A stretch of DNA of 64,000 nucleotides, from positions 12,836,381 to 12,900,380 of the forward strand of contig NC_057752.1 in the NCBI RefSeq assembly GCF_004010195.1, given 5' to 3'. Position 1 is the stretch's first letter. Each line of letters opens with the position of its first letter. This DNA comes from Chiloscyllium plagiosum. Taxonomy: Eukaryota. The notes under the pieces were generated by a model. The model had not been told where the DNA came from, made no database searches, and saw only the letters and a list, made by a program, of their open reading frames with translations. This document shows positions 6,571 to 63,499 of the stretch, one piece after another. A program made the position numbers and the translations under genes.

Positions 6571-6721
6571 GTTTTTTTTTGGTTTGAACTTTAAAAATTT
6601 GGTATCAGTAAAAGCTGTTGTCAGAAAAATGTAACAAATTAATTACATCGTTTCGGGGAGGCACTCTGTTGTTTCCTCCTGGCCTGCTCTGTTTGTGACT
6701 CCAGTTTCATACTTATATACG

Positions 6722-6874
6722 TTGCTGGAAAAGCGCAGCAGGTCAGGCAGCACCCAAGGAGCAGGAGAATCGACGTTGATTCTCCTGCTCCTTGGATGCT
6801 GCCTGACCTGCTGCGCTTTTCCAGCAACACATTTTCAGCTCTGATCTCCAGCATCTGCAGTCCTCACTTTCTCC
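6722..6874. mobile_element. Fold-back PLE terminal-repeat insert (family P1) with 15-bp TSD
   Basis: Inverted arms 6721-6774 and 6775-6828; flanks tcatacttatatacg (6707-6721) and tcatacctatatacg (6875-6889). Confidence 0.85.
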
Positions 6875-7224
6875 TCATACCTATATACGCTTATTTTTAA
6901 ACTTCCTCAGAAGTAACTCCGTCAATCCCTCAGAAAGCCTTGCTGGTAACACCAAGATTGCAAGAGTGAATAAACAAAGTAAATGAGCACAAGTCCTGAA
7001 GAATTACATTTAATTCATTCCTGCGGTGTGGGCATCAGGCAAGCCCAGTCTGTGCTGTCCATCTCTAGTTGCCCTTGGATTGGCTTACTGAGTTGGCTGG
7101 ATAGTGTGGAATAACATTTCCTGTTAAGGCATAAGCAGTTCTCAGTGCCTGCCTTTTCATCTCATGCAGTCCTGGCATACGCTATGACTGCCTTCGTGCA
7201 ATAAGGGCATGCAGCAAGAGAGAG

Positions 7225-7460
7225 CATTGCCCCTTGAGAAGGTGGTGGTGAGCTGCCTTCTTGAACTGCTGCAGTCAATGTGCTGTGGGTAGACTCACAA
7301 TGCCCTTTAATCCAGGAATTTGATGGTGAAGGAATATATACTTCCAAGTCAGGATGGTGAGTGTCTTGGAGGGGAATTTGCAGGGGGTAGTGCTCTTATG
7401 TATCTGCTGCTCCTGTGCTTCTAGATGGAAGGGCATATGGGTTTGGAAAGGGCTATCTAA
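7225..7460 (-). mobile_element. LINE-B 3' end fragment
   Basis: ttgccccttgagaaggtggtggtgagctgccttcttgaac...ttccaagtcaggatggtgag block repeated many times in the window. Confidence 0.8.
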
Positions 7461-7924
7461 TGTTGGGATTTCTACAGGGATATTAGCTGTAAGACTACAG
7501 CCAATGTCAAATAAGGAGCACTAGATGGTGAAACTTGGCATGGGGTCAAGAGAAGGGCAAAGATAATAACTACATATTTTATCTCAATTATCACAGAAGA
7601 GGTAACTATTGACCACCACCAAGGGTGCAGAATTGTGCATGGATATTAAGATCCAAAGAGAGCTGGCATTAAATAGGCTGCTCATATTCAATTTAAAACC
7701 TGTCATTGTCTTCTACCTGAGGACAGCTCGTGAGGAATTGGAGATTTTTCTGTGGGAAGGAAAATGGCACCATGAGGTGAGCAGGTTTGTGTGAGTGGCA
7801 TCCCTATTCAAAGCAAAAAAAAACATTTATTTTGAGTGGATTCACCACTGCATTCAGCCAGCAGTATCTCTGATGAGTCATGTTGGAATGTTAAGTGCTT
7901 TAACAGTTCAAGTGACCAATTCTC

Positions 7925-8360
7925 CAGTAGCTTTCACAAACCCCAGGATGCACCGAAGTACTTTCTGAAATGTAGTTCACTGTTGTGATGTCTGAAATGC
8001 AGTGGCCATTTTGTGAACACTGAGCTACCACAGACAGCAATGAGTTTGTGACTGGACATTGGTTTGCTTTTTGCATTTCTGATCAAGGGGTAAGTACTGG
8101 CCAGGACATTAGGACTGCATTTCTGATTGCATTTCTGATCAAGGGGTAAGTACTGGCCAGGACAGAAGGAATCCCCTTCTCTTGCAAATGTGATCTTTCA
8201 GATCCACCCCTGAGAGATTGAAGGAGGACTCAGTTTAGTGTCTCACTTGGGAGTCTGTGCTGCTGACAGTGCAGCACTTTCTGTACTGCATTAGGATGGC
8301 AGCCTGGATTTTTTTTTGTGCTCTAATCTCTAGTGTGGCACTCGAGCCTGGGAGCTTTTA
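7925..8360 (-). mobile_element. Deu-domain-like SINE (SacSINE1/AmnSINE1-like), decayed
   Basis: Minus strand has tccaggctg...cagtacagaaagtgctgcactgtcag, tgtcctggccagtacttacccc and cattgctgtctgtgg; homologous to 43735-44110 and 36325-36500. Confidence 0.65.
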
Positions 8361-8369
8361 CTGTGGTTA

Positions 8370-8920
8370 GTACATAAGTATAGGAGTGGGGAGGCCATGT
8401 TGCATGGTACAGGACATTGGTAAGGCCACTTTTGGAATACTGCGTTCGGTTCTAGTCACCCTGCTATAGGAAGGATGTTGTGAAACTTGAAAGGGTTCAG
8501 CAAAGATTTACAAGAATGTTGCCAGGGTTGGAGGGTTTGAGCTATAGGGAGAGGCTGAACAGGCTGGGGCTGTTTTCCCTGGAGCATCAGAGGCTGAAGG
8601 GTGACCTTATACAGGTTTCAAAAATCATGAGGGACATGGACAGGGTGAATAGCGAAAGTCTTTTTTCCCTAGGATTGGGGAGTCCAAAACTAAAGGACAT
8701 AGGTTTAAGGTGTGAGGAATGTGGAGGGTGGTGCGTGTGTGGAATGAGCTGCCAGAGGAAGTGGTGGAGACTGGTACAATTACAACATTTAAAAGGCATG
8801 GGTATATGAGTAGGAAGGGTTTGGAGGGATATGGGCCAAATACTGCCAATGGGACTAGTTTAATTAGACAAGTTGGACTGAAGGGTCTGTTTCCGTGCTG
8901 TGCAACCCCATGACTCTATA
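8370..8920 (+). mobile_element. CR1 LINE 3' fragment
   Basis: KLERVQQRFTRMLPGLEGLSYRERLNRLGLFSLE and VWNELPEEVVE; close to 3910-4500. Confidence 0.9.
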
Positions 8921-9224
8921 ACAGTGAGGCCGCAATGGGCAAGGGGCTATTCATTCAGCACTAGGAGGCAGGATTAAATTCCGTCTGAAAGAGGCTTTTC
9001 ATCCAGTCTACCCACCGAGAGAGGCCCCCATGTAACAAATTTAAGGGATGTCTGCTCTGTCCCCAGATGGGTGAGATTCTAAACACTAAACTCCCAATGG
9101 GAGAAGTACGATTTGCATGCAACCTTTTCCAAAACTGGCTGGCGTGAGGAATAAAAATCAATCCAGTGTGATAGCCTGATGCTTTTCTGAGACAAGTCCT
9201 TCTCTCATGTTGGATAGTTTCCTT

Positions 9225-10681: not shown

Positions 10682-11020
10682 CCAGTGATGTTATTGCTGG
10701 ACTGTTAATCTAGAGACCCAGGTCATATTCTGGGGACCCGGGTTCAAATCCTACCACAGCAGATGGTGACATTTGAATTCAATATTAAAATGAAATTGGA
10801 ATTAAAAGTGGCCATAAAACCATTATCAATTGTTGGGGAAAACCCATCTGGTTCGCTAATGTCCTTGAGGGAAGAAAACTGTTGTCTTTACCTGGTCTGG
10901 GCCTACATGTGACTCTAGGCCCACAGCCAATGTGGTTGACTCTTAACTGCCTTCTGAGATGGGCAAGAAGAGCTGGGGTAGCCAGTGACTCCCACATTCT
11001 GTGAATGAATTTTTAAACAT
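10682..11020 (+). mobile_element. tRNA-derived SINE-B sharing the LINE-B 3' tail
   Basis: B-box-like gggttcaaatcc at ~10739; core cccatctggttc...cttacctggtctgggcctacatgtgactc; tail cccacattctgtgaatgaa; other copies at 14200-14500, 33795-33985, 35180-35470, 47770-48125 and 55990-56230. Confidence 0.8.
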
Positions 11021-12984: not shown

Positions 12985-14010
12985 AAGAATGGTACAACAC
13001 AGGAACAGGCCCTTCGGCCCTCCAAGCCTGTGCCGACACATTTTGCCCTTCCATATTAAAACTCTCTTCTCTTACAGGATCCATATCCCTCTACTCCCTT
13101 CCTATTCATGTATTTATCCAGGTGCTTGAATGCTGCTATTGTGTCTGCTTCCACCACCTCCTCTGACAACATGTTCCAGGCACTCATCACCCTTTGTGTG
13201 AAAAACCTGCCTCACACATCTCTTTTAAGCTTTTTTCCTCGCATCTTGAACCTGTGTCCCCTAGTAATTGACCCCTTCACCCTGCGAAAAAGCCTCATAC
13301 TTTCCACTCTATCCATGTCATTCACAATCTTATAAACTTCTATCAGGTTGCCCCTCAACCTCCTGTGTTCCAGTGAAAACAAACCGTCTATCCAACCTTT
13401 CTTCCGAGCTAAAATCCCCCATACCAGACAACATCCTGGTAAACCTTTTCTGTACCCTCTCCAGAGCATCCACATCCTTCTGGTAGTGGGGTGACCAGGA
13501 CTGTCTGCAGTTTTCCAGGTGTGACCTAACAAAAGTTCTCTTTTCTCATTGGAATGAAGAAGGATGAGAGGTGACTTGATAGAGGTGTACAAAATGATAA
13601 GAGGTATATACAGAGACTTTTTCCCAGGGCAGAAATGGCTATCATGAGAGGGCTTAATTTTATGGTAATTAGAGGAAGGTTTAGGGGAGATGTCAGAAGT
13701 AGGTTCTTTACACAGAGAGGAGTGGGTGCATGGAATGCACTGCCAGCAATGGTGGTAGAGTCAGAGACATTAGTGATATTTAAGTGACTCTTGGATAGGC
13801 ACATGGATAATAGTAAAATGAAGGGTATGTATGTTAGTTTAATCTTAGAATAGGATTAAAGTTCGGCACGACATTGAGGGCTGAAGGGCCTGTACGGTTG
13901 TGTATTCTGTGTTTTATAAAGCTGCAGCATAACCTGCCTGTACGTTTATATTCACTGCCCCTTCCAATGAAGTCAAGTATGCCGTTGGCCTTTTTTACTA
14001 CCTTATCTAC
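12985..14010 (-). mobile_element. CR1 3' fragment (minus) interrupted by a second CR1 3' fragment (plus, ~13538-13912)
   Basis: Minus GLFSLEHRRLRGNLIEVYKI; plus-strand aggatgagaggtgacttgatagaggtgtac...gggctgaagggcctgtac; the minus copy resumes at ttttataaagctgcagcat. The stack sits between Deu-like SINE halves (12840-12950 and 14030-14200). Confidence 0.8.
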
Positions 14011-15990: not shown

Positions 15991-16404
15991 TGCAGAATGG
16001 GATATTGAGGCGATGGAAGGATTTAAACACAAGAATGAGATTCCAGGATTGAGGAGAATCCAGGACCAGCATAGAGAGCATGGGGTGGGGGGGGGGGGGG
16101 GATTGAATAGGGCTTGGTTTCAATTATTTCCCCTCATATACATAAATGGCAAGTGTGAGCAAAATGCAAGCTTTCTTGGCTTGTATTGAAAAGAGTATTG
16201 AGGTTATGCATCAGATGAAGAGGGTGAGTGGAGTGTGAGATGCTGAGGATGTTTAAGGTGTTTTATGAAGAGTTTATAGAGCGAGATTCAGAGGGACCAA
16301 GTCATGCAGTGGATCAAATCACTTGGGGATGGTGCAAGATCATAAATAATAGAATCATAAGTCATAACTTGCAAGTGTTAAAACAGCACGAAAAGAACCA
16401 ACAG

Positions 16405-17065
16405 GTTCATCGTCCTCAATCTAGTCTACTGCATTCACTGCTTACAATGTGGTCTCCTCTACATTGGGGAAACGAAGCATAGACTGGGTGGTAACTTCAC
16501 AGAGCACCTATGTTCTGTCTGCAAAAAAGACCCTGAGCTTCTAATTGCTGACCACCTCAACACCCCACCCTGTTCTCTGGTCAACATTTCTGTCTCAGGC
16601 TTGCTGCAGTGAAGCTGGAAGAACAGCACCTCATTTTCCACTTGGGCACTCTACAGCCTTCTGTACTCCATATCGAGATCAACAATTTTAGGGCTTCTCC
16701 CATGTCCTTACCTCAACACACCTTGTTATCACACAGTCTGCTATTACAAACAGCCCATAGTTAGCCAATAACAGTCCCCATTACCTGCTATTCACCCTCC
16801 CAGCCAGATCATTATTGACTCCTTTGTCTTTCCAATAGTCCTTCTCCCACTTTAGGTTCTATCCCCACCTATTGTTTATTCCTTAGCCCCTACATATCTT
16901 CTACATATCTTCTACATATATCTTCTACATATCTTCTACATATAAACCAACACTTTCCTGGCTACCATCAGTTCTGAGGAAGCGTCACTGGTCCCAAAAC
17001 TTTGATTTCTCATCACAGATGCTGCCGGACCTGCTGAGCTTTTCCAGCAACTTCTGTTTTTGTCC
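16405..17065 (+). mobile_element. PLE 3' region: GIY-YIG endonuclease remnant plus terminal repeat
   Basis: aatctagtctactgcattcactgcttacaatgtggtctcctctacattggggaaacg = NLVYCIHCLQCGLLYIGET; ends in degenerate ctgagga...caaaac motif and gatgctgccggacctgctgagc. Confidence 0.85.
16890..16944. repeat. Short tandem repeat, 11-bp unit ctacatatctt, about 5 copies
   Basis: Read directly in sequence. Confidence 0.85.
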
Positions 17066-17356
17066 CCTAAACTGGTATTGTGCAAAGAAATAGAATTAAT
17101 TAACACCACATAGGGAAGGCACACCCTCCCCAACACCAGGTAATAGCAATTTTAATATGGTGGATTTTACATTCCATTTGAAGGAGAGAGAAGTGTAGGT
17201 CTAAGACTAATGTTTTAAACTTAAATAAGAGCAATATAAGGGCATGAAAACAGAGGTGGCAAAAGTGAATTGGTAAAGTGAGCTGACAATTTAAAGGGTA
17301 TGTTAACAGAGATGTGGTGGTAGATATTTAAGGGGATATTTCAGAATAGGTATGAA

Positions 17357-17490
17357 AGTGAGGAAGGGTCACTGGACCCGAAACGTTAACTCTGATTTCT
17401 CTTCACAGATGCTGCCAGACCTGCTGAGCTTTTCCAGCAATCTCTGCTTTTATTTCTGATTTATAGCATCCATAATTCTTTTGGTTTTTA
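17357..17490 (+). mobile_element. PLE terminal repeat starting at the hammerhead motif
   Basis: gTGAGGAaGGGTCactgGACCCGAAAcgttaactc followed by gatgctgccagacctgctgagcttttccagc. Confidence 0.8.
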
Positions 17491-17889
17491 TTTTGGTTCA
17501 TGATCCTCATTGGGATTAAATAGGTCAGATTGCAAGATTTAAATAAATTGAAGGGATCTTGATGGATTGGATAGGGAGAAGCTGTTTCCACTTGCAGGAC
17601 CTTCACTCTCTGGGGATGTGAACTGATAACCATAGCCAAAAAAAGGGGAGCATTGAGTTTTATTTTGTTGTGCAGTGTGTTCTGATGATCTGGAACACAT
17701 CTGAAGCAGATTCAAGAATGATTTTCAAAGGGAGTCAGATACATATGCAAGAAAGCAAGATTCACAGGGCTGTGGGGAAAGAGCAGGATAGTGAAACTAA
17801 TTGGATAATTCCACCTTAGAGCCAGCCAGGCATGTGGACGATTGACTCCCTATATACTGTACTGTAAGATTCTATAATGTTACGATATG

Positions 17890-18540: not shown

Positions 18541-19330
18541 GAATCAGCCTTTTGACCTCTGTATTCCCAATACAGTAAGAGTCGACAGTGGAAGACCCCG
18601 TACAATCACTCTGATAGTTCTTAACCTGACTTTTGAATAAGCAATTCCAGACTTTGCAAATCATTAATTTCCAGACATTGAATTTGTATCTCAAACAAAA
18701 AAAACTCAACTATCAATTAACTATACAATTATTTTAGCTGAGAGAAAATTAAACACACAGTGACTAAATTTCAAAAGTACTTCATCAAATGTGAAGTGCT
18801 TCGGGCCGTCTTCTGGATGTGAAAGGCCAATGTGTAAAGACTTTTTCTTTTAAGATGGAACCAGCTCATCAGTGACTTTTTCCCAGACTTGCCTTCAAAT
18901 CCTTTTTAAAAGGAGGCTTGCTTTCATGAAGATCGAGTCTCAGCATCAATAGTTCTGCCACAACCACTCTATCAGAGCCTCACCATAACTGAAGCATTTT
19001 CACAAAGCAGATATTTCACAAATGAGATTTTTTTTTGAAGACCATTACCATGGAAAACAAATATAAAAGAGTGAGCAATAATGTAGAGCTTTGTAAACAT
19101 TATTGCAAGTGACAGCATGAGGGGAGATCATGGCCATTGAATAAGCCAGGATGTGTGAGTGCCTCTCTAATGTTGATTCAGATGCCTCTTGCTGCCAGTA
19201 ACTGTTCTAAAAGATCAAGTTATCTCCTTGGCAACTCATTGTTCAGATTTAAAAAAATTTAGCAACAAGTGATGCCAATTTGTGCGATGTTGTGCTCACA
19301 CTGTTGACGAATGGGGCTGATGGTAGTAGG

Positions 19331-19459
19331 TGAAAGTGAGGACTGCAGGTGCTGGAAACCAGAGTTTAAATCAGAGTGGTGCTGGAAAAGCACAGCAGGT
19401 CAGGCAGCATCCGAGGAGTAGGAAAATCAACGTTTCGGGCAAAAGCCCTTCGTCAGGAA
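19331..19459 (-). mobile_element. Solo PLE terminal repeat with hammerhead motif and 13-bp TSD
   Basis: Flanks tgatggtagtagg (19318-19330) and tgatggaagtagg (19460-19472). Confidence 0.8.
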
Positions 19460-19460
19460 T
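19421..19460 (-). ncRNA. Minimal type I hammerhead ribozyme motif (PLE-associated)
   Basis: Minus strand auuc CUGACGA a GGGC uuuu GCCC GAAA cg UU gauu: intact CUGANGA and GAAA cores, 4-bp stem II, palindromic ACGU in place of stem III. Activity not shown. Confidence 0.7.
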
Positions 19461-19639
19461 GATGGAAGTAGGCCTCGTGTCCAAATTTCAGGCACGGCAT
19501 TATTGCCTTAAAATATAGAGAATAGGGATAAGACGTTAGGAACAAGAAATGGCCATTCAGTGCTTCCAGCCTATTCAGCCATTCAATGGGAACAGTCTGC
19601 CTCTTCCCTCCATATTCCTTCCTTGCTTTATCAAAAATC

Positions 19640-20900: not shown

Positions 20901-21121
20901 AGTCCCTTTTAAGTTAACTGGCACAATCACTGGAAAATAGATTTACCCAGTTCTTTCTAGCTGAATCTGTTGCTGGGCCTTTGCCTGTGTTGTTATGATA
21001 CCATGCGCCAGGCAGTGTGTACAAGTGAACCTCTGAGTCTTTTCTCACTCACTGCTGCCGGATGCCATACCTCTCTCAGTGCATGCCCCTGGCATTATGG
21101 GTGAACTCATCAATTCAGTGT

Positions 21122-21960
21122 TCAAAGTTTGTGAGAAGATTCGTAGCTCGGTTGTTCGTTGCTGTGGTTCTGTTCGCCGAGCTGGAAGTTTTTGTTGCAA
21201 ACGTTTCATCCCCTGTCTACGTGACATCCTCAGTGCTTGGGAGCCTCCTGTGAAGCGCTTCTGTGGTGTTTCCTCCGGCATTTATAGTGGCCTGTCCCTG
21301 CCGCTTCCAGTTGTCAGTTTCAGCTGTCCGCTGTAGTGGCCGGTATATTGGGTCCAGGTCTATGTGTTTGTTGATGGAGTTTGTGGATGAGTGCCATGCT
21401 TCTAGGAATTCCCTGGCTGTTCTTTGTTTCGCTTGCCCTATAATGGTAGTGTTGTCCCACTCAAATTCATGTTGCTTGTCGTGACAGGGGACGAAACGTT
21501 TGCAACAAAAACTTCCAGCTAGGCGAACAGAACCACAGCAACGAGCACCCGAGCTACAAATCTTCACCCAAACTTTATTCATAATTGTTATTCTGTGGTA
21601 AGAGTCTATTTATTTGCAACCAAAATTAGATGTTGTTAAATACAGGAACCTGGCCTGTAATTTCAATTACCTTGAGTCTATTTGGGCAAGCGAAACAAAG
21701 AACAGCCAGGGAATTCCTAGAAGCTTGGCACTCATCCACAAACTCCATCAACAAACACATCGACCTGGACCCAATATACCGGCCACTACAGCGGACAGCT
21801 GAAACTGACAACCAGAAGCGGCAGGGACAGGCCACTATAAATGCCGGAGGAAACACCACAGAAGCGCTTCACAGGAGGCTCCCAAGCACTGAGGATGTCA
21901 CGTAGACAGGGGACGAAACGTTTGCAACAAAAACTTCCAACTCGGCGAACAGAACCACAG
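21122..21960. mobile_element. Compound inverted PLE insertion (family P2) with GIY-YIG C-terminal fragments and 11-bp TSD
   Basis: HEFEWDNTTIIGQAKQRTAREFLEAWHS...INKHIDLDPIY on minus (21125-21482) and plus (21681-21960); caattcagtgt at 21111-21121 and 21961-21971. Confidence 0.85.
21886..21925 (+). ncRNA. Minimal hammerhead ribozyme motif (family P2 terminal repeat)
   Basis: GCA CUGAGGA u GUC acguagacaggg GAC GAAA cg UU UGC: core intact, 3-bp stem I (GCA/UGC), ACGU palindrome; inverted copy at ~21196-21237. Confidence 0.65.
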
Positions 21961-22084
21961 CAATTCAGTGTAAATGGATGGAAATCCATTTTCTCACCCT
22001 CTGCAGTGCAGTCCAGTGTGCCATCAATCTGATCTAGCTCTTGAATGGGAGATGGCAACATGACCAACACTTAGACAATTATAA

Positions 22085-22565: not shown

Positions 22566-23065
22566 NNNNNNNNNNNNNNNNNNNNNNNNNNNNNNNNNNN
22601 NNNNNNNNNNNNNNNNNNNNNNNNNNNNNNNNNNNNNNNNNNNNNNNNNNNNNNNNNNNNNNNNNNNNNNNNNNNNNNNNNNNNNNNNNNNNNNNNNNNN
22701 NNNNNNNNNNNNNNNNNNNNNNNNNNNNNNNNNNNNNNNNNNNNNNNNNNNNNNNNNNNNNNNNNNNNNNNNNNNNNNNNNNNNNNNNNNNNNNNNNNNN
22801 NNNNNNNNNNNNNNNNNNNNNNNNNNNNNNNNNNNNNNNNNNNNNNNNNNNNNNNNNNNNNNNNNNNNNNNNNNNNNNNNNNNNNNNNNNNNNNNNNNNN
22901 NNNNNNNNNNNNNNNNNNNNNNNNNNNNNNNNNNNNNNNNNNNNNNNNNNNNNNNNNNNNNNNNNNNNNNNNNNNNNNNNNNNNNNNNNNNNNNNNNNNN
23001 NNNNNNNNNNNNNNNNNNNNNNNNNNNNNNNNNNNNNNNNNNNNNNNNNNNNNNNNNNNNNNNNN
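22566..23065. other. Assembly gap (500 N)
   Basis: Run of N; the round length suggests a scaffolding placeholder, so the true distance across it is unknown. Confidence 0.98.
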
Positions 23066-23584: not shown

Positions 23585-23685
23585 TAGCTTAATGAAGGAT
23601 CCTGCCCGAAATGTCGACTCTCCTGCTCCTCCGATGCTGCTGGACCTGCTGTGCTTTATTCCAGCTCCGCATTTTATCCACTCCA
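23585..23685 (+). mobile_element. Decayed PLE terminal repeat
   Basis: gcccgaaatgtcgactctcctgctcctccgatgctgctggacctgctgtgc. Confidence 0.7.
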
Positions 23686-32830: not shown

Positions 32831-33159
32831 TTTCAACAACATGTAAAGTCGACTGAGCATCATTAAACAAAGAGACAAGGTGGTGTAGCTTTTTATCTTA
32901 CTCTAATCGGGCCAATCCCAACAATTGGTAGTGTGTCAGGAAAAGGTGATGATAGGTTTGCAACTGTAATTGTTGATTAGCCATGATCTTTTTGAATTGT
33001 ACATTAAGCTTGAGAAGCCGAGTGGCCTACTCCTGCTCCTCATTCTTGGACGTACTTTCATATATCTTGGTAAGGAGAGGTCATAACGACTGACTAGGCT
33101 TTTCCATTGGGCCTCCAGTTTCTTGCCATGACAGAGTGGGAGCTGGGCAATTTCAGAGG

Positions 33160-33452
33160 GTAAAAGTGCTGAAAATGTGTTGCTGGAAAAGTGCAGCAGG
33201 TCAGGCAGCATCCAGGGAACAGGAGAATCGACATTTCGGGCATAAGCCCTTCTTCAGGAATGAGGAAAGTTTGTCCAGCAGGCTAAGATAAAAGGTAGGG
33301 AGGAGGCACTTGGAGGAGGGGCGTCGGAAATGTGATAGGTGGAAAGAGGTCAAGGTGAGGGTGATAGGTCAGACTGGGGTGGGGGCGGAGAGGTCAGGAA
33401 GAAGATTGCAGGTTAGGAAGGCGGTGCTGAATTCGATGGATTTGACTGAGAC
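33160..33452 (-). mobile_element. PLE 3' end (family P1) with hammerhead motif
   Basis: Minus strand ttcCTGAAGAaGGGCttatGCCCGAAAtgtcgattctcctg at 33222-33260; upstream C-rich tract. Confidence 0.8.
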
Positions 33453-33985
33453 AAATGACTCAGTTATTAAATGACTTTGAGCTGTTGGAAAACAGCAGTG
33501 ACAATGGAGTGAATAACACCGCAGTCTCAAATCACGTTCTGTGGGCATCTGCTGTATTATTTAATGACACTGATCAAAGGCAGGGATTTGCAGAATTGTC
33601 ATGGGTTTTTATCTTTCAAAGTCAAACTTTCCAACGCCGCGGAAGACCTAAACATGGAGGAAATTGTCCTTTATCTCAGTGGTAGCACACTTTCCCTGAG
33701 ACAGCGGTTAAGAGTTCAAGACCCACTTTAGTACCTGAGCACCTCACACATGTTGACATTTCTCGCTGCACTGTCAGGAGATGTAGAGGAGGCAGGGGCC
33801 TTGTGGTATTATCGCTGCAGTGTTAACCCTGAGACCCTGGTAATGTTCTGGAAACCCAGGTTTGAATTCTGCTATGGCAGATGGTCAAATTTGTATTTAA
33901 TTAAAAACAAAATCTAGGGTTAAGAGTCTAATGATGACCACGAAACTGTTGTTGATTTTCGGAGAAACTCATTTGGTTCTCCTTT

Positions 33986-34280
33986 AGACAATAGACAATA
34001 GGTGCAGGAGTAGGCTATTTTGCCCTTCGAGCCTGCACCGCCATTCAATATGATCGTGGCTGATCATCCTTAATCAGTATCCTGTTCCTGCCTTATCTCC
34101 ATAACCCTTGATTCCACTATCCTTGAGAGCTCTATCCAACTCTTTCTTAAATGAATCCAGAGACTGGGCCTCCACTGCCCACTCGGGCAGAGCATTCCAC
34201 ACAGCCACCACTCTCTGAGTGAAGACGTTTCTCCTCATCTCTGTCCTAAATGGTCTACCCCGTATTTTTAAGCTGTGTCC
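33986..34280 (-). mobile_element. CR1 3' end, relatively young
   Basis: GHSLKIRGRPFRTEMRRNVFTQRVVAVWNALP; tail (ctattgt)2 seen as agacaatagacaatag. Confidence 0.88.
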
Positions 34281-34526
34281 AGTGTAGTTGCGGAAGATGG
34301 ACTGTTCCACATATCCTACGAAGAGGCAGGCATAGCTGGGGCCCATGCGGGTGCCCATGGCTACTCCTTTCGTTTGGAGGAAGTGGGAGGATTAGAAAGA
34401 GAAGTTGTTCAGGGTGAGGACAAAGCTGAAAATGTGTTGCTGGAAAAGCGCAGCAGGTCAGGCAGCATCCAAGGAACAGGAGAATCGACGTTAAGCTGAA
34501 AATGTGTTGCTGGAAAAGCGCAGCAG
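34278..34526 (-). mobile_element. PLE RT fragment joined to tandem P1 terminal-repeat pieces
   Basis: VLTLNNFSF.SSHFLQTKGVAMGTRMGPSYACLFVGYVEQ is the PLE-type RT G.AMG motif; 34422-34492 and 34493-34526 are direct repeats of the P1 terminus. Confidence 0.85.
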
Positions 34527-36753: not shown

Positions 36754-39000
36754 TCTGCACCCTCTCTAAAGCTTCCACATCTTTCCTATAATGAGGTGAC
36801 CAGATCAAACACAATATTCCAAATGTGGTCTATCCAGTGCTGTACAGAGCTGCAGCATAACTTTGCGGCTCTTAAACTCAATCTCCCTGCTAATGAAAGC
36901 CAACATACCATACGCCTTCTTAATAACCCTATCAGCTTGGGTGGCAACTTCGAGGGATCTATGGACGTGGACCCCAAGATCCCTCTATTCCTCCACACTG
37001 TCAAGAATCCTGCCTTTAACCCTGTAACCTGCATTCAAATTTGACCTTCCACTTTTCCAGTTTGAACTCCGTCTGCCACTTTTCAGCCCAGTTCTACATC
37101 CTGTCAATGTCCTGTTGCAACCTACAACAGCCCTCCACATTATTCACAACTCCACCAACCTTCATGTCATCGACAAACTGGGCGGCACGGTGGCACAGTG
37201 GTTAGCACTGCTGCCTCACCAGTGCCAGAGACCTGGGTTCAGTTCCCGCCTCAGGCGACTGACTGTGTGGAGTTTGCACGTTCTCCCTGTGTCTGCGTGG
37301 GTTTCCTCCGGGTGCTCCGGTTTCCTCCCACAGTCCAAAGATGTGCAGGTCAGGTGAATTGGCCATGCTAAATTGCCNNNNNNNNNNNNNNNNNNNNNNG
37401 TAATCTAATCTAATCTAATCTAATCTAAGTAATCTAATCTAAAAAAACTTACTAACCCACCCTTCCACTTCCTCATCCAAGTCATTTGTACAAATCGCAA
37501 AGAGCAGAGGTCCCAGAATAGATCCTTGCAGAATACCACTGGTCACCGAGTTCCAGGCTGAATAATTTCCATCTACTATCACCCTCTGTCTTCTATGGGC
37601 CAGCCAATTCTGTGTCCAGACAGCCAGATTTCCCTGTATCCCGTGCCTCTGTACTTTCTGAATGAGCCTACCATGGGGAACCTTATCAAATGCCTTGCTA
37701 AAATCCATGTACACCACATCCACTGCTCTACCTTCATCTATGTGTTTTGTCACATCCTCAAAGAATTCAATAAAGTTTGAGGCATGATCTGCCCCTCACA
37801 AAGCCACGCTGACTATCTCTAATCAAACTATGGTTTTCCAAGTAATCATAAATCCTGTCTCTCAGAATCCTCCAGTAATCTTCCCACCACAGATATAAGA
37901 CTGACTGGTCTGAAATTCCCAGGGTTATCCCTCGTCCCTTTCTTGAACAAGGGAATAACATTTACCACCCTCTAATCACCTGGTACTACTCCAGTGGACA
38001 GTGAGGGTGCAAAGATCATCGCCAAAGGTGCAGCAGTCTCTTCCCTCGCTTCCTGTAGAAACCTTGGGAATATCCCATCTGTCCCAGGGGGTTTATCTAT
38101 TCTCATGTTTTTCAAAATTTCCAGCACATCCTCCTCCTTAACATCAATCTATTTGAGCATATCAGCCTGTTTCACGCTGTCCTCACAAACAACAAGGTAG
38201 TGAATACTGAAGCAAAGTATTCATTAATGACCTCCCCTACCTCCTCGGAGTCAAGGCACAGGTTCCCTCCACTATCCGTGATCAGCCCTATCCTCACTCT
38301 GGCCATCCTCTTGTTCCTCACATAGGTGTAGAATGCCTTAGGGTTTTCCTTTAAACCTACCTGCTAAAGCTTTTTCATGCCCCCTTCTAGCTCTCCTAAA
38401 TCCATTCTTCAGTTCCTTCATGGCTACCTTGTAACCCTCTGGAGCCCTGTCTGATCCTTGCTTCCTCAACCTTAAGTAAGCTTCCATCTTCCTCTTAACC
38501 AGGTGTTCTATATCCCTTGTCACCCAAGGTTCCTTCACCTTATCATCCTTTCCTTACCTCAGTGGGACAAACCTGTCCAGCACTGTCAGCAAGTGCTCCC
38601 TAAACAACCTCCGCATTTCTGTTGTGCATTTTCCCAAGAACATCTGTTCCCAATTTAGGTGCCCCAGTTCCTGCCGAATAGCACTGTGATTCACCCTCCC
38701 CCAATTAAATACTTTCCCGTCTGCTCCTATCCCTCTTCATGAACTATAATAAAGATCAGGGAGTTGTGATCACTATCACCGAAAATGCTCTCCCATTGAG
38801 AGATCTGACACCTGGTCTAGTTCGTTGCCAAGCACCAATCCCCTCTCGTCAGCCTAACTAAACATTGAGTCGGGAATCATCCTGCAACACCTGACAAAAA
38901 CTGCTCCATCCACTATTTGAACTAAGGAGGTTCCAATCAATATTTAGTGAAATTAAAGTCACCATGACAACAACCCTATTACTTTTGCAGCTTTCCAAAG
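36754..39000 (-). mobile_element. CR1 ORF2 internal segment (endonuclease end to post-RT), lacking 3' end
   Basis: VDVVYMDFSKAFDKVPHGRL, GILQGSILGPLLF, IRDSQRGFVRGRSCL and KEPWVTRDI; ggtgactttaat (GDFN) at ~38955. Confidence 0.92.
37180..37440 (+). mobile_element. Young HE1-like SINE inserted into the CR1 RT at the FADD motif; contains a 22-N gap (37378-37399)
   Basis: gggcggcacggtggcacagtggttagcactgctgcctc with CpGs retained; (taatc)n tail; aaact on both sides. Confidence 0.9.
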
Positions 39001-40119: not shown

Positions 40120-40760
40120 CATAAGACACAGGAATAGAATTAGACCATTTGGCACCTTGAGCCTGCTTCCCCATTCAACAAGACGATGAGATGTAGAAAC
40201 AGCAGGAGGCCATTCAGCCCACTGTGGTTGTTCCACCATTCAATGAAATCATGGCTGATCTTATCATCCTCAACTCCACTTTCCTGCCTTTTTCCCATAA
40301 CCCCTCAATTCCCTTCCTAATTGAAAATCTCTCTGTCTCAACCTTGAATATACTTAATGACCCAGCCTTGACAGCCCTCTGTGGGAAAGAATTCCACAGA
40401 CTCATTCCTCTCTGAGAGAAGTCATGATTTGGAGATGCCGGTGTTGGACTGGGGTGTACAAAGTTAAAAATCACACAACACCAGGTTATAGTCCAACAGG
40501 TTTAATTGGAAGCACACTAGCTTCACTTGATGAAGGAGCGTTGCTCCGAAAGCTAGTGTGCTTCCAATTAAACCTGTTGGACTATAACCTGGTGTTGTGT
40601 GATTTTAAACTCTCTGAGAGAAGAAATTCCTCCTCATCTCCATCTGCAATGGCTGACCTCTTATTCTGGGATTATAGCCTCTGGTCTGAGACTCTCTCAC
40701 AAGGGGGAATAACCTCTCCACATCTCCCCTGTCAAGTCCCCCAGGGAATCTTGGAAGCTT
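40120..40760 (-). mobile_element. CR1 3' fragment hosting a PLE hairpin insert
   Basis: SQRGMSLWNSFPQRAVKAGSLSIFK on minus; resumes after 40623 with aaattcctcctcatctc. Confidence 0.8.
40422..40609. mobile_element. Fold-back PLE terminal-repeat insert (family P3) with 14-bp TSD
   Basis: Arms ~40466-40523 and 40550-40607; central tTGATGAaGGAGCgttGCTCCGAAAgctagtg; TSD ctctctgagagaag at 40408-40421 and 40610-40623. Confidence 0.85.
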
Positions 40761-41377
40761 CAATAATGGCAGTTCTGGAGAGGTAGCGTTCCCTCAGAAT
40801 TGTATGAGCATTGGCCTAGAAATCAAGGGATGACACACCCTCAGTCCCATTTTACCAAAGCAATAATGATTCACTGTGATTCTCCCTGTTGTGATATTGC
40901 CCCTAAGGACAGGACCCCTGCTCATTTCTCCACTCCACATGGTGCCTCACCTTTACCTTCAGTTGAGAGCCTCCTATTTTCAATGAGAAATGTGCAACAT
41001 GACAAGGGAGAATATAGTGAGGTCATTCCCCATTGCCTTCCTCGTGGATGCTTAAACGTAACAGAAGTCCTCTTCCTGAAGAATTATCTCCTTGCAGCAA
41101 CCGGTGTGTCTTGATGCTCAAGCTTTTCCACCCCCAGCCCTCTGGAAGGTGGCCAGTCCCACTGCTGGCATTGGCTCTTAAATGGCTTCCAAACCACTTA
41201 AAGATATCACTCAAGCAAATTTAATAACTCCCTTCAGTTTTCAAAGCAGAACCCTTTGCTGAGCCAATGTTTTTGTTGATCTGGGTTCATAGCCAAGTAC
41301 TTGTGATAGTTATAAGTTGTTTGTTCTGTGATCTCTTTTGTCAATGTATCAGAGTCTATTTGGACAAAATGAAGAGG

Positions 41378-41485
41378 ATGTGGAGGTGCTGGTGTTGGAC
41401 TGGGGTGGATAAAGTCAGAAGTCACACGACACCAGATTATAGTCCAACAGGTTTATTTGAAATCACAAGTTATTGGAGTGTTGTA
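41378..41485 (-). mobile_element. Older P3-type PLE terminal fragment
   Basis: ggtgttggactgggg...cacacgacaccagattatagtccaacaggtttat similar to 40430-40510. Confidence 0.75.
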
Positions 41486-52215: not shown

Positions 52216-52415
52216 TTTTAGCTGAGAATACCTTGGCCCTGGAGTCTTCAGATGGTGGTGGAAAACAATCCCTGTGCCTGAATGTTAAGGCTTGAGGTGC
52301 CCTGATATAAACCCTTTGCCTTGTTTATATTGATCTAGCGAGTTGGGGATAATAACATAAGCAATTTCCCACAGAGGGAAAAAAACAGCAAATAACAACA
52401 CTAATACTGTATGAG

Positions 52416-52466
52416 CTGACACATTTTTCATCTCTGATCTCCAGCATCTGCAGTCCTCACTTTCTC
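52416..52466 (+). mobile_element. 51-bp PLE (P1) terminus with perfect 15-bp TSD
   Basis: ctaatactgtatgag at 52401-52415 and 52467-52481 around tctgatctccagcatctgcagtcctcactttctc. Confidence 0.85.
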
Positions 52467-52933
52467 CTAATACTGTATGAGGTGAAGATATTGATTGCAC
52501 TGGAGATCCATTCTGAGGTACACAAAATTAGTTAGACCATAATAAATTTCTCATTTGTTAGGGGTTTCTTCCATTCACTCGTGCTGAAAGGGACTTTTTT
52601 TCTGAAAAATCTCTTCAGAATTTTACAATATTACACAGTGGACAGTGATAGTGTTCAGTAAATTAAACAGTGTGATCTGATGCAATAGAAAGTTAGTATT
52701 TTTGTGCATGTCAGCAATTATCTGAGACATTCCAACAATATGAGAATTAATTAGAGAGCAGGAGGTGTTGGCACCAAGATCGCATTAAGCCTATAAGGAG
52801 ACCAGAGGTACAGATGTCTCGAGAATCTGCCTTGTTAATTGGGACAGCAGACAATAATGCAGGACCAATTTGCAAGTCATTACAGTTATAGCCAATCAGA
52901 GGTGACATTTAACAATCATAGAATCCCTACAGT

Positions 52934-54095: not shown

Positions 54096-54330
54096 TGCTT
54101 CCATTTGTGGGCAGTAAAAAACTGGAGGCAATAAAATGTGAGATAGACACTAATAAACCCAATGCAAGAGTGGTTAGAATGTGGTGTTCTCTACTGCATC
54201 GAGTAGTTCACGGCAATACATGAAAACATTTAAGGGGAGGCCAGGTAAATGCATGAGAGAGAAAGGAATAGGGTGAGATGAAGTTTGGAGGGAGGAGGTT
54301 TATGTGGAGCTCAATGCTGACATGGATCAG

Positions 54331-54536
54331 GAGAAAATGAGGAGTGCAGATGCTGGAGCTCAGAGTCGAAAAGTGTGGTGCTGGAAAAGCACAACCAGTC
54401 AGGTAGCATCTGAGGAGCAGGAGAGTTGATGTTTCAAGCATGGGCTCTTCCTGATGAAGACCTCATGCTCGAAACATCAACTCTCCTGCTCCTCGGATGC
54501 TGCCTGACCGGCTGTACTTCTCCAGCACCATACCTT
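54331..54536. mobile_element. Fold-back PLE terminal-repeat insert with perfect 20-bp TSD
   Basis: Arms ~54369-54450 and 54455-54538 around CTGATGA (54451-54457); tcaatgctgacatggatcag at 54311-54330 and 54537-54556. Confidence 0.88.
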
Positions 54537-54984
54537 TCAATGCTGACATGGATCAGTTGGCTAAATGCGAGTGAGAAAGGATCATAGAGCTCATTGTTTT
54601 TGCAAAATGTCATACTTGCTGAGTCATCACTGACCCAAACCCCTTGCCAATCTCTCGGTTTGGGTCAGTCATTGACCAAGTCTGAATCTGGGACTTGAGT
54701 TCAATGATAAAGATCTGTTCTCGCCTGGGCAAGGCTTCGGGATCAGCTCTTCCTCTATTTCAAACTGTTTGCAAAAGAGAGCCAAAAATTGGCCAAACAT
54801 TCTTCTCTCAACCAAAATAACTAGCTGCTCTGCAGAGTTATCTCTCTTTATATTCTGGCTCTTTCTGGGACCTTGGCACCCACCGATTGTGTTCATCTGT
54901 TCTGTACTAGGATTCAAAGTCATTGAGGGTGTGAAGCAGTTTGAACACATGATGCTACACCATTGCTTTCCGTTAGGAAAGGTT

Positions 54985-59169: not shown

Positions 59170-59560
59170 CTTGTCTGCCTTCCGCGGGGACTGTTCCCTC
59201 CAGGGCACCCTGGTCCACTCCTCTTCCACTCCCAACACCTACCCACAGCCCCATGGCACCTTCACCTACACTTTATCTAGTCTACTGTATTCGTTACTCA
59301 CAATGTGGTGTCCTCTACACTGGGCAGAAGAAGCACAGACTGGGTGACTGCTTCACAGAACGCCACTGTTTTGTCTGCAAAAGTAACACTGAGCTTCTGG
59401 TTGCCTGCCACTTCAACACATGACTGTGCCACCTGGCCAACATCGCACCTCAGGCTTGCTGCAGTTTTCCAGCGAAGCTCAGCACAAGGTGGAAGAACAG
59501 TATCTTATAACCTTCAGAATTTAACATTGAGTTGAACAATGTCAGAATGTGAACACTTGC
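59170..59560 (+). mobile_element. PLE GIY-YIG fragment, decayed
   Basis: AFRGDCSLQGTLVHSS then ctagtctactgtattcgttactcacaatgtggtgtcctctacactggg (LVYCIRYSQCGVLYTG); homologous to 16410-16690. Confidence 0.75.
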
Positions 59561-59929
59561 CTAACCCCACACGCCAGTTCTGTATGGGTTGTTCCCAACA
59601 CAGTCAATCAATTTTAGAACATAGAACATTACAGCGCAGTACAGGCCCTTCAGCCCTCGATGTTGCACTGACCTGTGAAACCAATCTAAAGCCCATCTAA
59701 TCTGCACTATTCCATTTTCATCCATATGTTTATCCAATGACCATTTAAATGCCCGTAAAGTTGGCGAATCTACAACTGTTGGAGGCAGTGCATTCCACTC
59801 CCCTACTACTCTGAGTAAAGAACCTACCTCTGACATCTGTCCTATATCTATCACCCCTCAATTTAAAGATATGTCCCCTCGAGATAGCCATCACCATCCA
59901 AGGACAGAGGCTCTCACTGTCCATCCATC

Positions 59930-60895
59930 TCATTCTCTAATCATCTTGTATGCCTCCATTACGTCACCACTTAACCTTCTTCTCTGTGTCAAAAACAGCC
60001 TCAAGTCCCTCAGCCTTTCCTCATAAGACCTTCCCTCCATACCAGGCAACATCCTGGTAAATCTCCTCTGCACCCTTTCCAAAGCTTCCACACCCTTCCT
60101 ATAATAGGATGACCAGAACTGTACGCAATACTCCAAGTGTGGCCGCACCAGAGTTTTGTACAGCTGCAAAATGACCTCGTGGTTCCAAAACTCAATCTCT
60201 CTACCAATAAAAGCTAACACATCATATGTTTTCTCAATAACCCTATCAACCTTGAGGGCAACTTTCAGGGATCTGTACATGGACAGATGGACACCGAGAT
60301 CTCTCTGCTCATCCACACTACCACAAATCTTACCATTAGCCCAGTGTTCTTTATTCCTGTTGCTCCTTCTAAAGTGAATCACCTCACACTTTTCCGCATT
60401 AAACTCCATTTGCCACCTCTCAGCCCAGCTCTGCAGCTTATCTATGTCCCTCTGTAACCTGCAACATTCTTCAGCACTATCCACAATTCCACCAACTTTA
60501 GTGTCATCCGCAAATTTACTAACCCATCCTTCTACGCCCTCATCCAGGTCATTTATAAAAATGACAAACAGCAGTGGCCCCAAAACAGATCCTTGTGGTA
60601 CACCACTCATAACTGAACTCCAGGATGAATGTTTCCCATCAACCACCATCCTCTGTCTTCTTTCAGCTAGCCAATTGCTGATCCAAACCGCTAAATCACC
60701 CTCAATCCCATGTCTCTGTATTTTGTGCAGTAGCCTACTGTGTGGAATCTTATCAAATGCCTTACTGAAATCCACATACCCCACATCAACTGCTTTACCC
60801 TCATCCACCTGTTTGGTCACCGTCTCAAAGAACCCCATAAGGTTTGTGAGGCGCGACCTACCCTTCTGAAAACAATGTTGACAATCCTTAATCAA
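59930..60895 (-). pseudogene. Uninterrupted 321-aa stretch of CR1 reverse transcriptase
   Basis: DFSKAFDKIPH, GVPQGSVLGPLLFVIFIND, KFADDTK, WQMEFNAEKC and RPHLEYCVQFW; flanking ORF2 parts are frameshifted. Confidence 0.92.
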
Positions 60896-61365
60896 ATTAT
60901 TCCTTTCTACATGATTATAAATCCTATCTCTTATATAATCCTTTCCAAACCTTTGCCCACACCCGAAGTAAGGCTCACTGGTCTATCATTACCAGGGTTG
61001 TCTCTACTCTCCTTCTTGAACAAGGGGACAACATTTGCTATCCTCCAGTCTTCTGGCGCTATTCCTGTAGACAGTGATGACATAAAGATCAAAGCCAAAG
61101 GCTCTGCAATCTCCTCCCTGGCTTCCCAGAGAATCCTAGGATAAATCCCATTCGGCCCAGGGGACCTATCTATTTTCACACTTTCCAGAATTGCTAACAC
61201 CTCCTCCTTGTAAATCTCAATCCCAGCTAGTCTAATAGACTGTATCTCAGTATTTTTCTTAACAACATTGTCTTTTTCCAGTGACAAAAAATATTTATTT
61301 AGCACCTCTCCTATCTCTTCGGACTCCTTGCACAACTTCCCACTACCGTCCTTGACCGGCCCTAA

Positions 61366-62238
61366 ACTCGCCCTAAATAGACAGCCAGGAGGCTGGAAAA
61401 ACACCACAAGCCAGGCAGCATTAGGAGGTGGAGAAGTCAAAGTTTCGGGTGTAACCCTTCCTCAAGACTGGGGGTGAGTGTAAAGGGAAGCTGCAGATAA
61501 AGGGGGTGGCAGATGCAGGATGATGAAGTGGGGATAGGTGAAGACAGGTAGAGTGTATGACCTGGTTGGTCAATGGGAGGAATAAATCCGGTTGGTGGTA
61601 GGGAGCAGTGGAAAGGAGGGGGAGGAGCTTGCAAGGGAGTCTGGGGATGAGGAGGATGTTATTTGAAATTGGAGAACTCAACGTTGAGTCCTCTGGGTCG
61701 TCGGCTGCCCAGGCGGACGCTGAGGTGTTGTTCCTTCGATTTGCGGTTTGGTTTGTTTTGGCAATGGAGGAGGCTGAGGATGGTCATGTCGGAAAGGGCA
61801 TGGAAAGGAGAATTGAAATGGGCGGGGACTGAGAGGTCAGGTTGGCCCCTGAGAGCCTGGCTGTGATGCTCGGTGAACTGTTCCCTAAGTTAATGTTCAG
61901 TCTCCCCGATGTAGAGAAGACCACATAGAGAGCCACTGATGCAGTAAACTAGGTTTAGCTGGGTCTGCAGGGACCGACTGGACCTCCCAGTCACCGCCCA
62001 TTTCAATTTCCCCCATTGACCAACCTGGTCGTACTCTCTACCTGTCTTCACCTATCCCCACCTCACCACCCCGCCCCCGCCACCCCCTTTATCTGCAGCT
62101 CCCCCCACACCCACCCCCAGTCCTGAAGGAGGGTTACACCCGAAACATCGAGTTCTCCACCTCCTGATGCTGCTTGGCTTGCTGTGTCCCAGCCTCCTGC
62201 CTGTCTACTTGGATTCTAGCATCTGCAGTGTTTTTTGT
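61366..62238. mobile_element. Inverted PLE insertion inside the CR1
   Basis: Minus part 61376-61955 has NLVYCISGSLCGLLYIGET and a terminal repeat; plus part 61960-62238 repeats the terminus (cCTGAAGGaGGGTtacACCCGAAA); ccctaa at 61360-61365 and 62239-62244. Confidence 0.85.
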
Positions 62239-63499
62239 CCCTAATCTTACTCTAGTCATTCTTTTATTCCCGACATACCTATGGAAAGCTTTCCTTGATC
62301 CTATCCACCAATGAATTCTCATATCCCCTCCTGGCTCTTTGTAGCTCTCTCTTTAGGTCCTTCCTGGCTAACTTGTAACTGAGCCTTCACGTCTCATCCT
62401 AACACAAGCCGCCTTCTTCCTCTTGACAAGAGATTCAACTTCTTTAGTTAACCACGGTTCCCTCGCTTGACCACTTCCTCCCTGCCTGACAGGTCCATTC
62501 TTATCAAAGACATGCCGTAACTGTTCCTTGAACAGGCTCCATGTTTCAATTCTTCCCATCCTCTGCAGTTTCCTTCCCCAACTTGTGCATCCTAAATCTT
62601 GTCTAATCACATCATAATTGCCTTTCTCTCAGCTGTAACTCTTGCCCTGCGGTATATACCTGTCTCCCTCCATCGCTAAAGTAAACATAACCGAATTGTG
62701 ATCACTATTACCAAAGTGCTCACTTACCTCCAAATCTAACACCTGGCCAGGTTCATTACTCAGTACCAAATCCAATGTGGCCTCACTCCTTGTTGGCCAG
62801 TCTACATACTATGTCAGAAAACCCTCCTGCACACATTGGACAAAAAGCTCACCCATCTAAAGTGCTCAAATTGTAGCGGTTCCAGTCAATATTTGGAAAG
62901 TTAAAGTCCCCCATAACAACTATCCTGTTACTTTCACTCCTATCCAGAATTATCTTTGCTATCCTTTCCTGTACATCCCTAGAACTATTTGGAAGCCGAT
63001 AGAAAACTCCCAACAGGGTGACCTCTCCTTTCCTGTTTCTAACCTTAGCCCATGCTACCTCTGTAGATGAGTCCTGAAACGTCCTTTCTGCCACTGTAAT
63101 ACTGTCCTTGACTAACAGTGCCCCGCTTCCCCCTCTTTTACCACCTTCCCTGATCTTACTGAAACATCTGAACTCCGGACCCTGCAACAACCATTCCTGT
63201 TCCTTCTCTATCCACGCCACAACAAGAAAGTTCCAAGTACCAACCCATGCTGCAAGTTCACCCACCATATTCTGGATGCTCCTGGCATTGAAGTAGACAA
63301 AATTCAAAACCACCTTCCTGCTTGCCGGTACACTCCTGTGACCTTGAAACGTTATTCATGACCTCACTACTGTCAACCTCCTGTGCACTGGAGCTACAAT
63401 TCAGGTTCCCATTCCTCTGCTAAATTAGTTTAAATTTTCAATCATTTATACTTCTTGTTAGCGTATTAGCCAGGATTCATCTCTCTTAACTTATCAGCA

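Follow-up and report, generated by a model that had tools for sequence, protein, structure and literature searches.

Short hammerhead-bearing inserts in a Chiloscyllium plagiosum contig as truncated ends of Penelope-like elements, with a family A edge just upstream of the motif

Introduction

Minimal hammerhead ribozyme motifs have been described in metazoan Penelope-like elements (PLEs), where they combine CUGANGA, one extra base, a helix II that starts with G-C, GAAA, a palindromic helix III region and a short helix I, fall into covarying families and occur mostly as solo copies ascribed to truncated PLEs, with opposite-strand pairs 100-700 bp apart (PMC4209133). Here we analyse a stretch of 64,000 nucleotides of Chiloscyllium plagiosum (contig NC_057752.1, positions 12,836,381 to 12,900,380; called the window throughout) that holds seven inserts of this kind, at 6722, 19331, 21122, 40422, 52416, 54331 and 61366. 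The main text of the earlier description, unlike the present analysis, maps no insertion boundaries against the motif and names no shark.

The anatomy of the inserts is also that of endonuclease-containing (EN+) PLEs, for which the available text of two studies describes head-to-head arms, a palindrome or overlap at the junction, variable target site duplications (TSDs), partial tandems and a tail of 30-40 bp on one side (PMC3846280, PMC8557442); here too, the tail is found on one arm. Unlike the EN+ PLEs in those texts, most of the present inserts are very short and have junctions in or at the hammerhead. In Anolis Poseidon, an element of another species and clade that was studied in vitro, the PLE protein nicks and extends both target strands, and reverse transcriptase (RT) starts at two internal sites, 111-118 nt into an open reading frame (ORF) that begins at hammerhead stem II, while the RNA needs ~55 nt beyond these start sites. 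Uncleaved RNA is the dominant substrate in that system, catalytic mutants have no effect on insertion and no RNA-seq ends fall at the ribozyme cut site (PMC11167929). The inserts of the window resemble this element in having ends ~75-125 nt downstream of the hammerhead, in two classes, and an apparently uncleaved template; its main text gives no fixed 5' boundary.

Two further systems invite comparison. Animal retrozymes not of the long terminal repeat (LTR) type are likewise non-coding repeats with type I hammerheads, related to the PLE pseudo-LTR (pLTR), and have been found in the sole chondrichthyan sampled, according to the available text of two reports (PMC7229834, 10.64898/2026.07.22.740005). 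In those texts they form cut-to-cut tandem units that give circular RNA, whereas the inserts studied here lie scattered, as solo or inverted copies, and begin upstream of the core; none of the seven consists of tandem full motifs, and a tandem joint was seen in a minority of contigs from public data. In L1 twin priming, both target ends are extended and joined by microhomology and the TSD is kept, as we propose for our inserts, and an extra G at ends that reach the RNA start comes from cap copying; L1 inversions split one RNA into nearly non-overlapping halves, whereas here both arms copy the same end and a true inverted repeat results (these points on L1 from the available part of PMC11702581). 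A literature search returned no account of a boundary fixed at the hammerhead front, nor of twin priming in PLEs, although subscription papers, Repbase or supplements may have one. The kind of insert is thus already described, and the edge reported below is an apparently unpublished addition.

Results

Judged from their sequence, the inserts are truncated ends of at least three PLE families (families A to E in our labelling), and copies of family A share an edge at position -4. Positions are counted with +1 at C3 of CUGANGA, and the predicted cut lies between +28 and +29 (as in PMC4209133). The reference was 33120-33480, which contains a family A copy with 183 nt of upstream untranslated region (UTR) and no tail (33165-33440, - strand; C3 33257; predicted cut 33230|33229). 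It was compared, at a match threshold of 85%, with four public runs: X1 (organism A) and X9 (organism B), which are DNA searched as Logan contigs, X21, which is RNA, and X22, which gave 0 reads and hence no test. Among the six strongest loose ends per run (the best 18 of 765 rows, with X1 undercounted), the strongest on the upstream side was 33261, that is -4, with 204 contigs in X1, 244 in X9 and 93 reads in X21; another 186 contigs of X9 end at 33262. The loose letters beyond -4 have a median length of 166-255 nt in the DNA runs and agree with one another at 0.31, compared with 0.74-0.93 at variant continuations. Depth across the edge falls to a ratio of 0.32 in X1, 0.16 in X9 and 0.24 in X21, and the next bins drop 8-21% each in X1 and X21 (X9 is noisy). 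Within the window, three copies (19459, 40524 and 54448) begin at -3, each with support from a TSD or an inversion. The predicted cut site, 32 nt downstream of the edge, is missing from the six strongest loose ends in every run. The initial annotation had expected breakpoints to be enriched at the motif; this holds for family A, but the main edge is -4 and not the ribozyme cut. Since the edge lies upstream of the core, the template would have been uncleaved at that motif, a cleaved one being expected to start at +29. A minor class of ends at the cut site is possible alongside the -4 edge.

The base at -4 is an A in a YCA context in all five copies of families A, D and E that retain upstream sequence (TCATTC in A, TCAGTT in E and CCAGTC in D), a context that resembles an initiator. 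Just past the edge the consensus reads CC, CC and C on the + strand in the three runs with data, which corresponds to a G before the -4 A. A joint between 33261 and 33168, which is a tandem of a 94-nt unit running from -4 to the end of the pLTR, occurs in 12 contigs of X1 and 27 of X9. Three other causes of the edge were considered and rejected. Splicing left no recurrent intron-like skip among 15 of 29 joints, and no AG stands at the family A edge; a downstream promoter element at +28 fits the consensus only two bases out of register (by eye); and RT stalling at the fold does not suit the main edge, since the enzyme reaches the fold from its 3' side. As a separate observation at 33230/33261, one joint row per organism connects a piece whose last base is C17 with a copy that begins at -4, the two being separated by 2 or 5 letters (two among the 12 rows listed, with 69 further rows).

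Seven breakpoints inside the window (6774, 17357, 19459, 21483, 34492, 40523 and 54450) had been said to lie in or beside the motif. They do, at -6 to +28 of C3, but they are just 7 of 16 head-side junctions. Seven others are away from the motif (near 16373, 21684, 33440, 34526, 52416, 61960 and 63500) and two are too decayed to place (23592 and 41467), the copy at 1-110 being left out of the count. Against the most favourable exponential truncation, clustering at the motif has a P of 0.002-0.008 if starts are placed at the tail and of 0.02-0.13 if they are taken as tail-less.

The seven TSDs were all present at the lengths first claimed, five exact and two with one mismatch. Family A is represented by a hairpin insert at 6722-6874, between 15-bp TSDs with one mismatch (6707-6721 and 6875-6889); by a solo end of 129 bp on the - strand at 19331-19459, whose 13-bp TSDs, also with one mismatch, begin at 19318 and 19460 (span 19318-19472); by a tail-only stub of 51 bp on the + strand at 52416-52466, without hammerhead and with exact 15-bp TSDs at 52401 and 52467 (span 52401-52481); and by a second hairpin insert at 54331-54536, with exact 20-bp TSDs at 54311 and 54537 (span 54311-54556). 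The Poseidon-like family B contributes a complex insert at 21122-21960 (exact 11-bp TSDs at 21111 and 21961; span 21111-21971), family C a hairpin insert at 40422-40609 within a CR1-like repeat (exact 14-bp TSDs at 40408 and 40610; span 40408-40623), and the Neptune-like family D an inverted insert at 61366-62238 that breaks the RT frame of a long interspersed nuclear element (LINE) (exact 6-bp TSDs at 61360 and 62239; span 61360-62244). In random pairs of window sites an exact repeat of at least 11 nt arises by chance at 0.2% and one of 6 nt at 36%; because 6-nt repeats are this common, the 6-bp TSD was put to a further test. Excising 61366-62244 rejoins an open 80-codon frame of the host LINE and yields a junction-spanning alignment to another copy, and the 6-bp TSD is genuine. 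Similarly, once the 40422 insert is excised, the sequence across the emptied site aligns over 265 nt with a further copy of the repeat. These are the two of the seven sites that had a partner copy in the window.

Five of the seven inserts are inverted structures, as proposed. In each of the five a tailed and a short arm meet head to head, and no two share a centre. In the 6722 insert the short antisense arm (6721-6774) meets the tailed sense arm (6775-6874) at an ACGT palindrome at 6774; the insert keeps the palindrome and the 3' strand of helix I, while the CUGANGA core that would make it a hammerhead insert is absent. An alternative reading of its centre joins +23 to +29, and one arm may therefore derive from cleaved RNA. 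In the 54331 insert the tailed antisense arm ends inside the core (+5..+8) and the sense arm starts at -3 (C3 54451), with TTC microhomology at the centre, 54450; in the 40422 insert the tailed antisense arm ends at +24 and the sense arm starts at -3 (motif 40527, C3 mutated). The arms of the young inserts are nearly identical, with 2/54 and 1/62 differences. The 21122 insert consists of a tailed antisense arm (21122-21490; GIY-YIG C-terminus, motif C3 21233), a middle part with a sense half-motif and tail (21483-21576) followed by ~105 bp of non-PLE filler, and a tail-less sense arm (21684-21963) with an ORF and C3 at 21889. The 61366 insert joins an antisense arm (61375-61960; GIY-YIG C-terminus, motif 61465) to a tailed sense arm (61968-62238, motif 62123). 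The description of the inserts as hammerhead-bounded does not extend to 52416, which is a 51-bp tail only, to 61366 or to either long arm of 21122; by comparison, the solo end at 19331-19459 has an intact minimal hammerhead (C3 19456) and a tail, with its head end at -3, or up to -6 with microhomology. Ends in the window fall ~75-91 and ~110-126 nt past C3, two classes that would fit two RT starts. The filler at 21579-21683 has no second copy in the window and is possibly host DNA captured during insertion.

The hammerheads predicted in the inserts are minimal, of type I, and have stems with compensatory changes. The five stem II variants first noted (GGGC/GCCC, GGGUC/GACCC, GGAGC/GCUCC, GUC/GAC and GGGU/ACCC) and both palindromes, ACGU and AGCU, were found again, and pairing is kept as sequence changes: across 12 aligned copies, 72.5% of cells are paired, compared with 62.9% after shuffling (0/500) and 20-50% in slid controls, and both-sided changes affect three of four stem II pairs and three of four stem I pairs. 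Since the aligned copies are relatives of one another and also served to draw the structure, we take this covariation as support and not as a probability. Core and palindrome are both intact in three of the 12 motifs (19456, 21233 and 21889); the other nine are damaged in one or the other, as expected for decaying copies. RNAfold and cofold recovered stem II in 5/6 monomers but not the catalytic fold, including the dimeric one, an outcome of minimum-energy cofolding that counts neither for nor against cleavage. An Rfam search of the window gave no hammerhead match, only hairpin microRNA (miRNA) models below their gathering scores. These miRNA matches are at 6727-6821, 40489-40585 and 54412-54493 (best E=4.6e-10); the hairpin inserts are a likely source of false calls of miRNAs or of miniature inverted-repeat transposable elements (MITEs), and possible hairpin-RNA substrates. 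At 21220-21498 the family B reading frame passes stop-free through the hammerhead core, as it does in the proteins P0001, P0002 and P0009.

The inserts had been called non-coding or nearly so, which is correct for five of the seven, of 51-206 bp and without ORF, but not for 21122 and 61366. The former encodes (21220-21480) 87 aa that are 92% identical to P0001, an RT and GIY-YIG protein (RVT_1 E=3e-6 and a GIY-YIG motif, with relatives that match PF01541 weakly), and the latter 92 aa of a GIY-YIG domain; both are ordinary 5'-truncated PLE copies. For family A the link to coding sequence is a partial tandem at 34278-34526 (- strand), in an arrangement typical of PLEs: a short pLTR piece (34526-34494) is followed by a pLTR stub that starts at +23 (34492-34423) and is fused directly to internal PLE RT sequence (34424-34278), 49 aa of which are 94% identical to P0015. 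Remnants of families D and E match GIY-YIG regions with E-values of 1e-4 to 1e-11, in proteins with a CX2-5CXXC linker. The same linker is found in 3/3 complete, more distant relatives of the family A RT (65-83% over a 40-aa query) and is absent from 2/2 relatives of family B; we therefore call families A, D and E Neptune-like and family B Poseidon-like, labels that rest on this linker. Family C (40422 and 41377) shows no coding sequence in either window copy, so that its PLE origin rests on the motif and anatomy; motif, tail and inversion fit the PLE pattern. Taken as a whole, the window thus presents the marks of EN+ PLEs: linkage to an RT/GIY-YIG ORF, a pLTR with a minimal hammerhead, tail, inversion and partial tandem, and variable TSDs. 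Its retroelement proteins have their best matches among bamboo-shark proteins, named Chiloscyllium punctatum (97% over a 40-aa query and 92% over a 93-aa query). Pfam, run on five window fragments, detected only GIY-YIG, in one of the five (E=0.1), and a homologue search with the family E endonuclease remnant returned no matches. Pattern scans with the conserved block gave 0 loci each for viral contigs, metagenomes and prokaryote genomes; of 84 loci from a looser block scan only one reached a 35-nt alignment, and all were dropped, none being a genuine relative.

Discussion

What sets the edge at -4? We consider it probable that the inserts are truncated PLE ends and that family A copies start at -4 where RT runs off the 5' end of uncleaved RNA. 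The stubs appear to belong to the same families as the copies that code for RT and GIY-YIG, and their TSDs are variable. The endonuclease would nick both target strands, as the anole protein does in vitro, and two internal RT starts would give tailed and tail-less ends. The cDNA stop observed at -4 would most likely mark the start of transcription, on an initiator-like TCA(+1)TTC that overlaps the 5' strand of helix I, and joining to the target would produce a solo stub of ~95-130 bp; an RT start ~90-130 nt downstream of the motif likely explains the run-off at this position. When both target strands are extended, the 3' ends of the two cDNAs may anneal by microhomology, for example at the ACGT palindrome, and give a head-to-head hairpin with one tailed arm, formed anew at each insertion. 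The ribozyme would be carried along, and its cleavage would not set the main boundary. The initial annotation had instead proposed that the ribozyme defines the mobile unit of a SINE-like family (short interspersed nuclear element). Neither part of this proposal is supported: the main edge is upstream of the core and copies retain a core that a cleaved 3' product would lose, while short and long copies share a subfamily, a stub is fused to RT sequence and the five hairpins have five centres.

The same evidence bears on other ways of making an edge at this place. Self-cleavage of a hammerhead dimer, which would excise a short RNA as the SINE-like mobile unit, could draw on the paired stems retained across families, on a 6722 centre readable with one arm starting exactly at +29, on the two among 12 listed joint rows that join a C17 end to a -4 start and on the weak cleavage of minimal PLE hammerheads as dimers (PMC4209133), a reaction reviewed in the available text of PMC6765202. 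Yet we think it very unlikely, with the main edge 32 nt from the cut in copies that keep the core, no cut-site peak among the strongest loose ends listed, nine of 12 motifs damaged in core or palindrome, and catalytic mutants that leave in vitro insertion unaffected (PMC11167929). Somewhat easier to defend, though quite unlikely in our judgement, is that solo ends of 95-130 bp are re-transcribed from an internal promoter of their own and re-amplified in trans without cleavage, as lineages of monomeric retrozymes or SINE-like elements. One fixed unit, which starts at -4 and ends with the pLTR or the tail, does recur, also as the 94-nt tandem; in rotifers pLTRs alone are enough for trans-mobilisation, according to the available text of PMC3846280, and animal retrozymes derive from pLTRs, as stated in the accessible part of 10.64898/2026.07.22.740005. 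But in an alignment of eight family A pieces over their shared block, the short copies at 6722 and 34423 carry the same letters as the long copy at 33165, a sample that is too small to settle the lineage question; the window has no tandem array of the solo-end unit, the ~55 nt beyond the RT starts that anole element RNA requires would be missing from a stub, and the hairpin centres all differ. The Rfam search of the window gave no tRNA, 5S or 7SL match, and since no tandem array, structural RNA head or repeated hairpin centre was seen, a SINE-like or retrozyme lineage is not supported. A real edge could also arise otherwise than by transcription start, by exonuclease trimming down to a protein-protected hammerhead or by an endonuclease cut at ATT. 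The edge falls on the base that opens helix I, 5'-ATT-3' is the preferred site of the anole PLE endonuclease within its own pLTR junction, family A has ATT at -4..-2, and homing by the endonuclease could yield the 33261-33168 tandem joints; we nonetheless regard this as unlikely, as families D and E have AGT at that place, unrelated flanks and not PLE sequence predominate beyond the edge, and the G-like letters before -4 better match a cap. Finally, subfamilies that share the hammerhead and the block downstream of it but have unrelated upstream UTRs might create a false edge in the alignment. Upstream of the motif, families A, D and E are indeed different, and 85% likeness was accepted; even so, an artefact is highly improbable, because the loose letters are AT-rich and unlike one another (0.31), D and E, at only ~75% likeness to A, mostly stay under the threshold, one variant subfamily can be aligned across the upstream UTR, and a start at -3 in the window copies at 19459, 40524 and 54448 is backed by TSD or inversion.

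As for the hairpins, the main rival to the joining of two cDNAs is self-priming, in which one nucleic acid folds back on itself (the antisense-template model). Such fold-back has been proposed for rotifer PLEs from palindromes at inverted junctions, in the available text of PMC3846280; a fold-back of 3 bp with a loop of 5 nt can be drawn at the 54450 centre, and the young arms are near-identical (2/54 and 1/62 differences). We hold this to be possible, if rather unlikely: at 54450 the fold-back would make the tailed arm the self-copied one, whose template lacks a tail; the arms of 21122 and 61366 have very different head ends, with filler between them in 21122; and extension of both strands has been demonstrated in vitro for the anole PLE (PMC11167929). 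That hairpins are retroposed and not MITEs, as first suggested, is borne out. Although they are short, mostly non-coding and have long inverted repeats, the chance that they are non-autonomous DNA transposons is next to negligible given TSDs of 6-20 bp, asymmetric arms, a tailed side without terminal inverted repeat, five different centres with no two inserts alike, and PLE ORFs in two of them.

Several observations weigh against a transcription start at -4 with run-off. Clustering inside the window is modest, at P 0.002-0.13 depending on the null, and hence suggestive. The genome-wide test concerns family A only and comes from Logan contigs, which collapse repeats; some of the fall in depth may be due to relatives with a divergent UTR upstream of the motif, and a secondary peak at the cut site of up to ~90 contigs in X1 and 156 in X9 is possible. 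The G before the -4 A fits cap copying weakly, being a consensus letter without per-position agreement. The word YYANWYY occurs at 1.2% of positions, and the -4 A is also bound by helix I pairing. In X21 (2062 reads, both strands) no discrete peak of RNA starts or ends was seen, and 94% of the reads run on into unlike sequence; this is a poly(A) single-cell library sampled at 2%, unsuited to circular or unit-length RNA. Moreover, the RNA of the D. virilis PLE starts well upstream and has an intron that ends at helix I (available text of PMC2377424), so that a -4 start is not general.

A more far-reaching, and decidedly unlikely, extension of run-off at -4 would make the hammerhead the PLE counterpart of the retroviral R region, with -4..+28 repeated at both ends of the RNA. 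A capped start at -4 would combine with internal initiation to give a strong-stop-like cDNA of 95-130 nt, and cleavage at the downstream motif would leave a 3' end at C17; the repeat would let the cDNA jump, copy the ORF and rebuild the pLTR, and stubs and hairpins would be failed jumps. The leads towards this are the -4 edge itself, the G-like letters before it and the two rows that join a C17 end to a -4 start.

How PLEs form their pLTRs and inverted ends, and which role the hammerhead has, are questions of PLE replication that the -4 edge makes testable. Many short copies with a base-precise edge are a record of where RT starts and stops; a census of their junctions can therefore test whether transcription start or ribozyme cut sets the ends, and whether hairpins come from twin priming or from fold-back.

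Other features of the window

Further PLE pieces are scattered over the window. The Neptune-like family E is present as a 5'-truncated copy at 16373-17065 (+ strand; GIY-YIG remnant, UTR and a decayed hammerhead at 16975), as a solo end at 17357-17497 (+ strand) that starts at about +2 of the core and has stem II GGGUC/GACCC and no clear TSD, as another coding fragment without hammerhead end at 59275-59465, and as an old end at 63500-63725 (+ strand) with ~120 nt of UTR, a decayed motif and a possible 10-bp TSD with one mismatch. At 17353-17364, the 5-6 bases before the family E motif equal the antisense tip of the family A tail, and the 17357 breakpoint may reflect a very small inverted stub attached through microhomology, or chance. 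A tailed family A end at 1-110 (+ strand) runs off the edge of the window, an old family A-like end with a decayed motif at 23592-23675 (+ strand) has a head end that cannot be placed, and the same is true of an older tailed end of family C at 41377-41467 (- strand), whose head end is near the palindrome.

LINE fragments, including RT, endonuclease and ORF1 pieces read as CR1-like, lie at 59930-63355, 1420-2103 and 13212-13760, and two of the PLE inserts (40422 and 61366) are nested in CR1-like repeats. The assembly has gaps of 500 N at 22566-23065 and of 22 N at 37378-37399. Among database relatives, the partial protein P0016, listed as Proteus mirabilis and from a contig of 474 bp, shares 95% identity with the shark-like PLE RT stretch and is likely host DNA in a bacterial assembly. 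The annotated host gene isoforms P0003, P0007, P0010 and P0012 contain family B ORF sequence, as either exonised PLE pieces or annotation artefacts.

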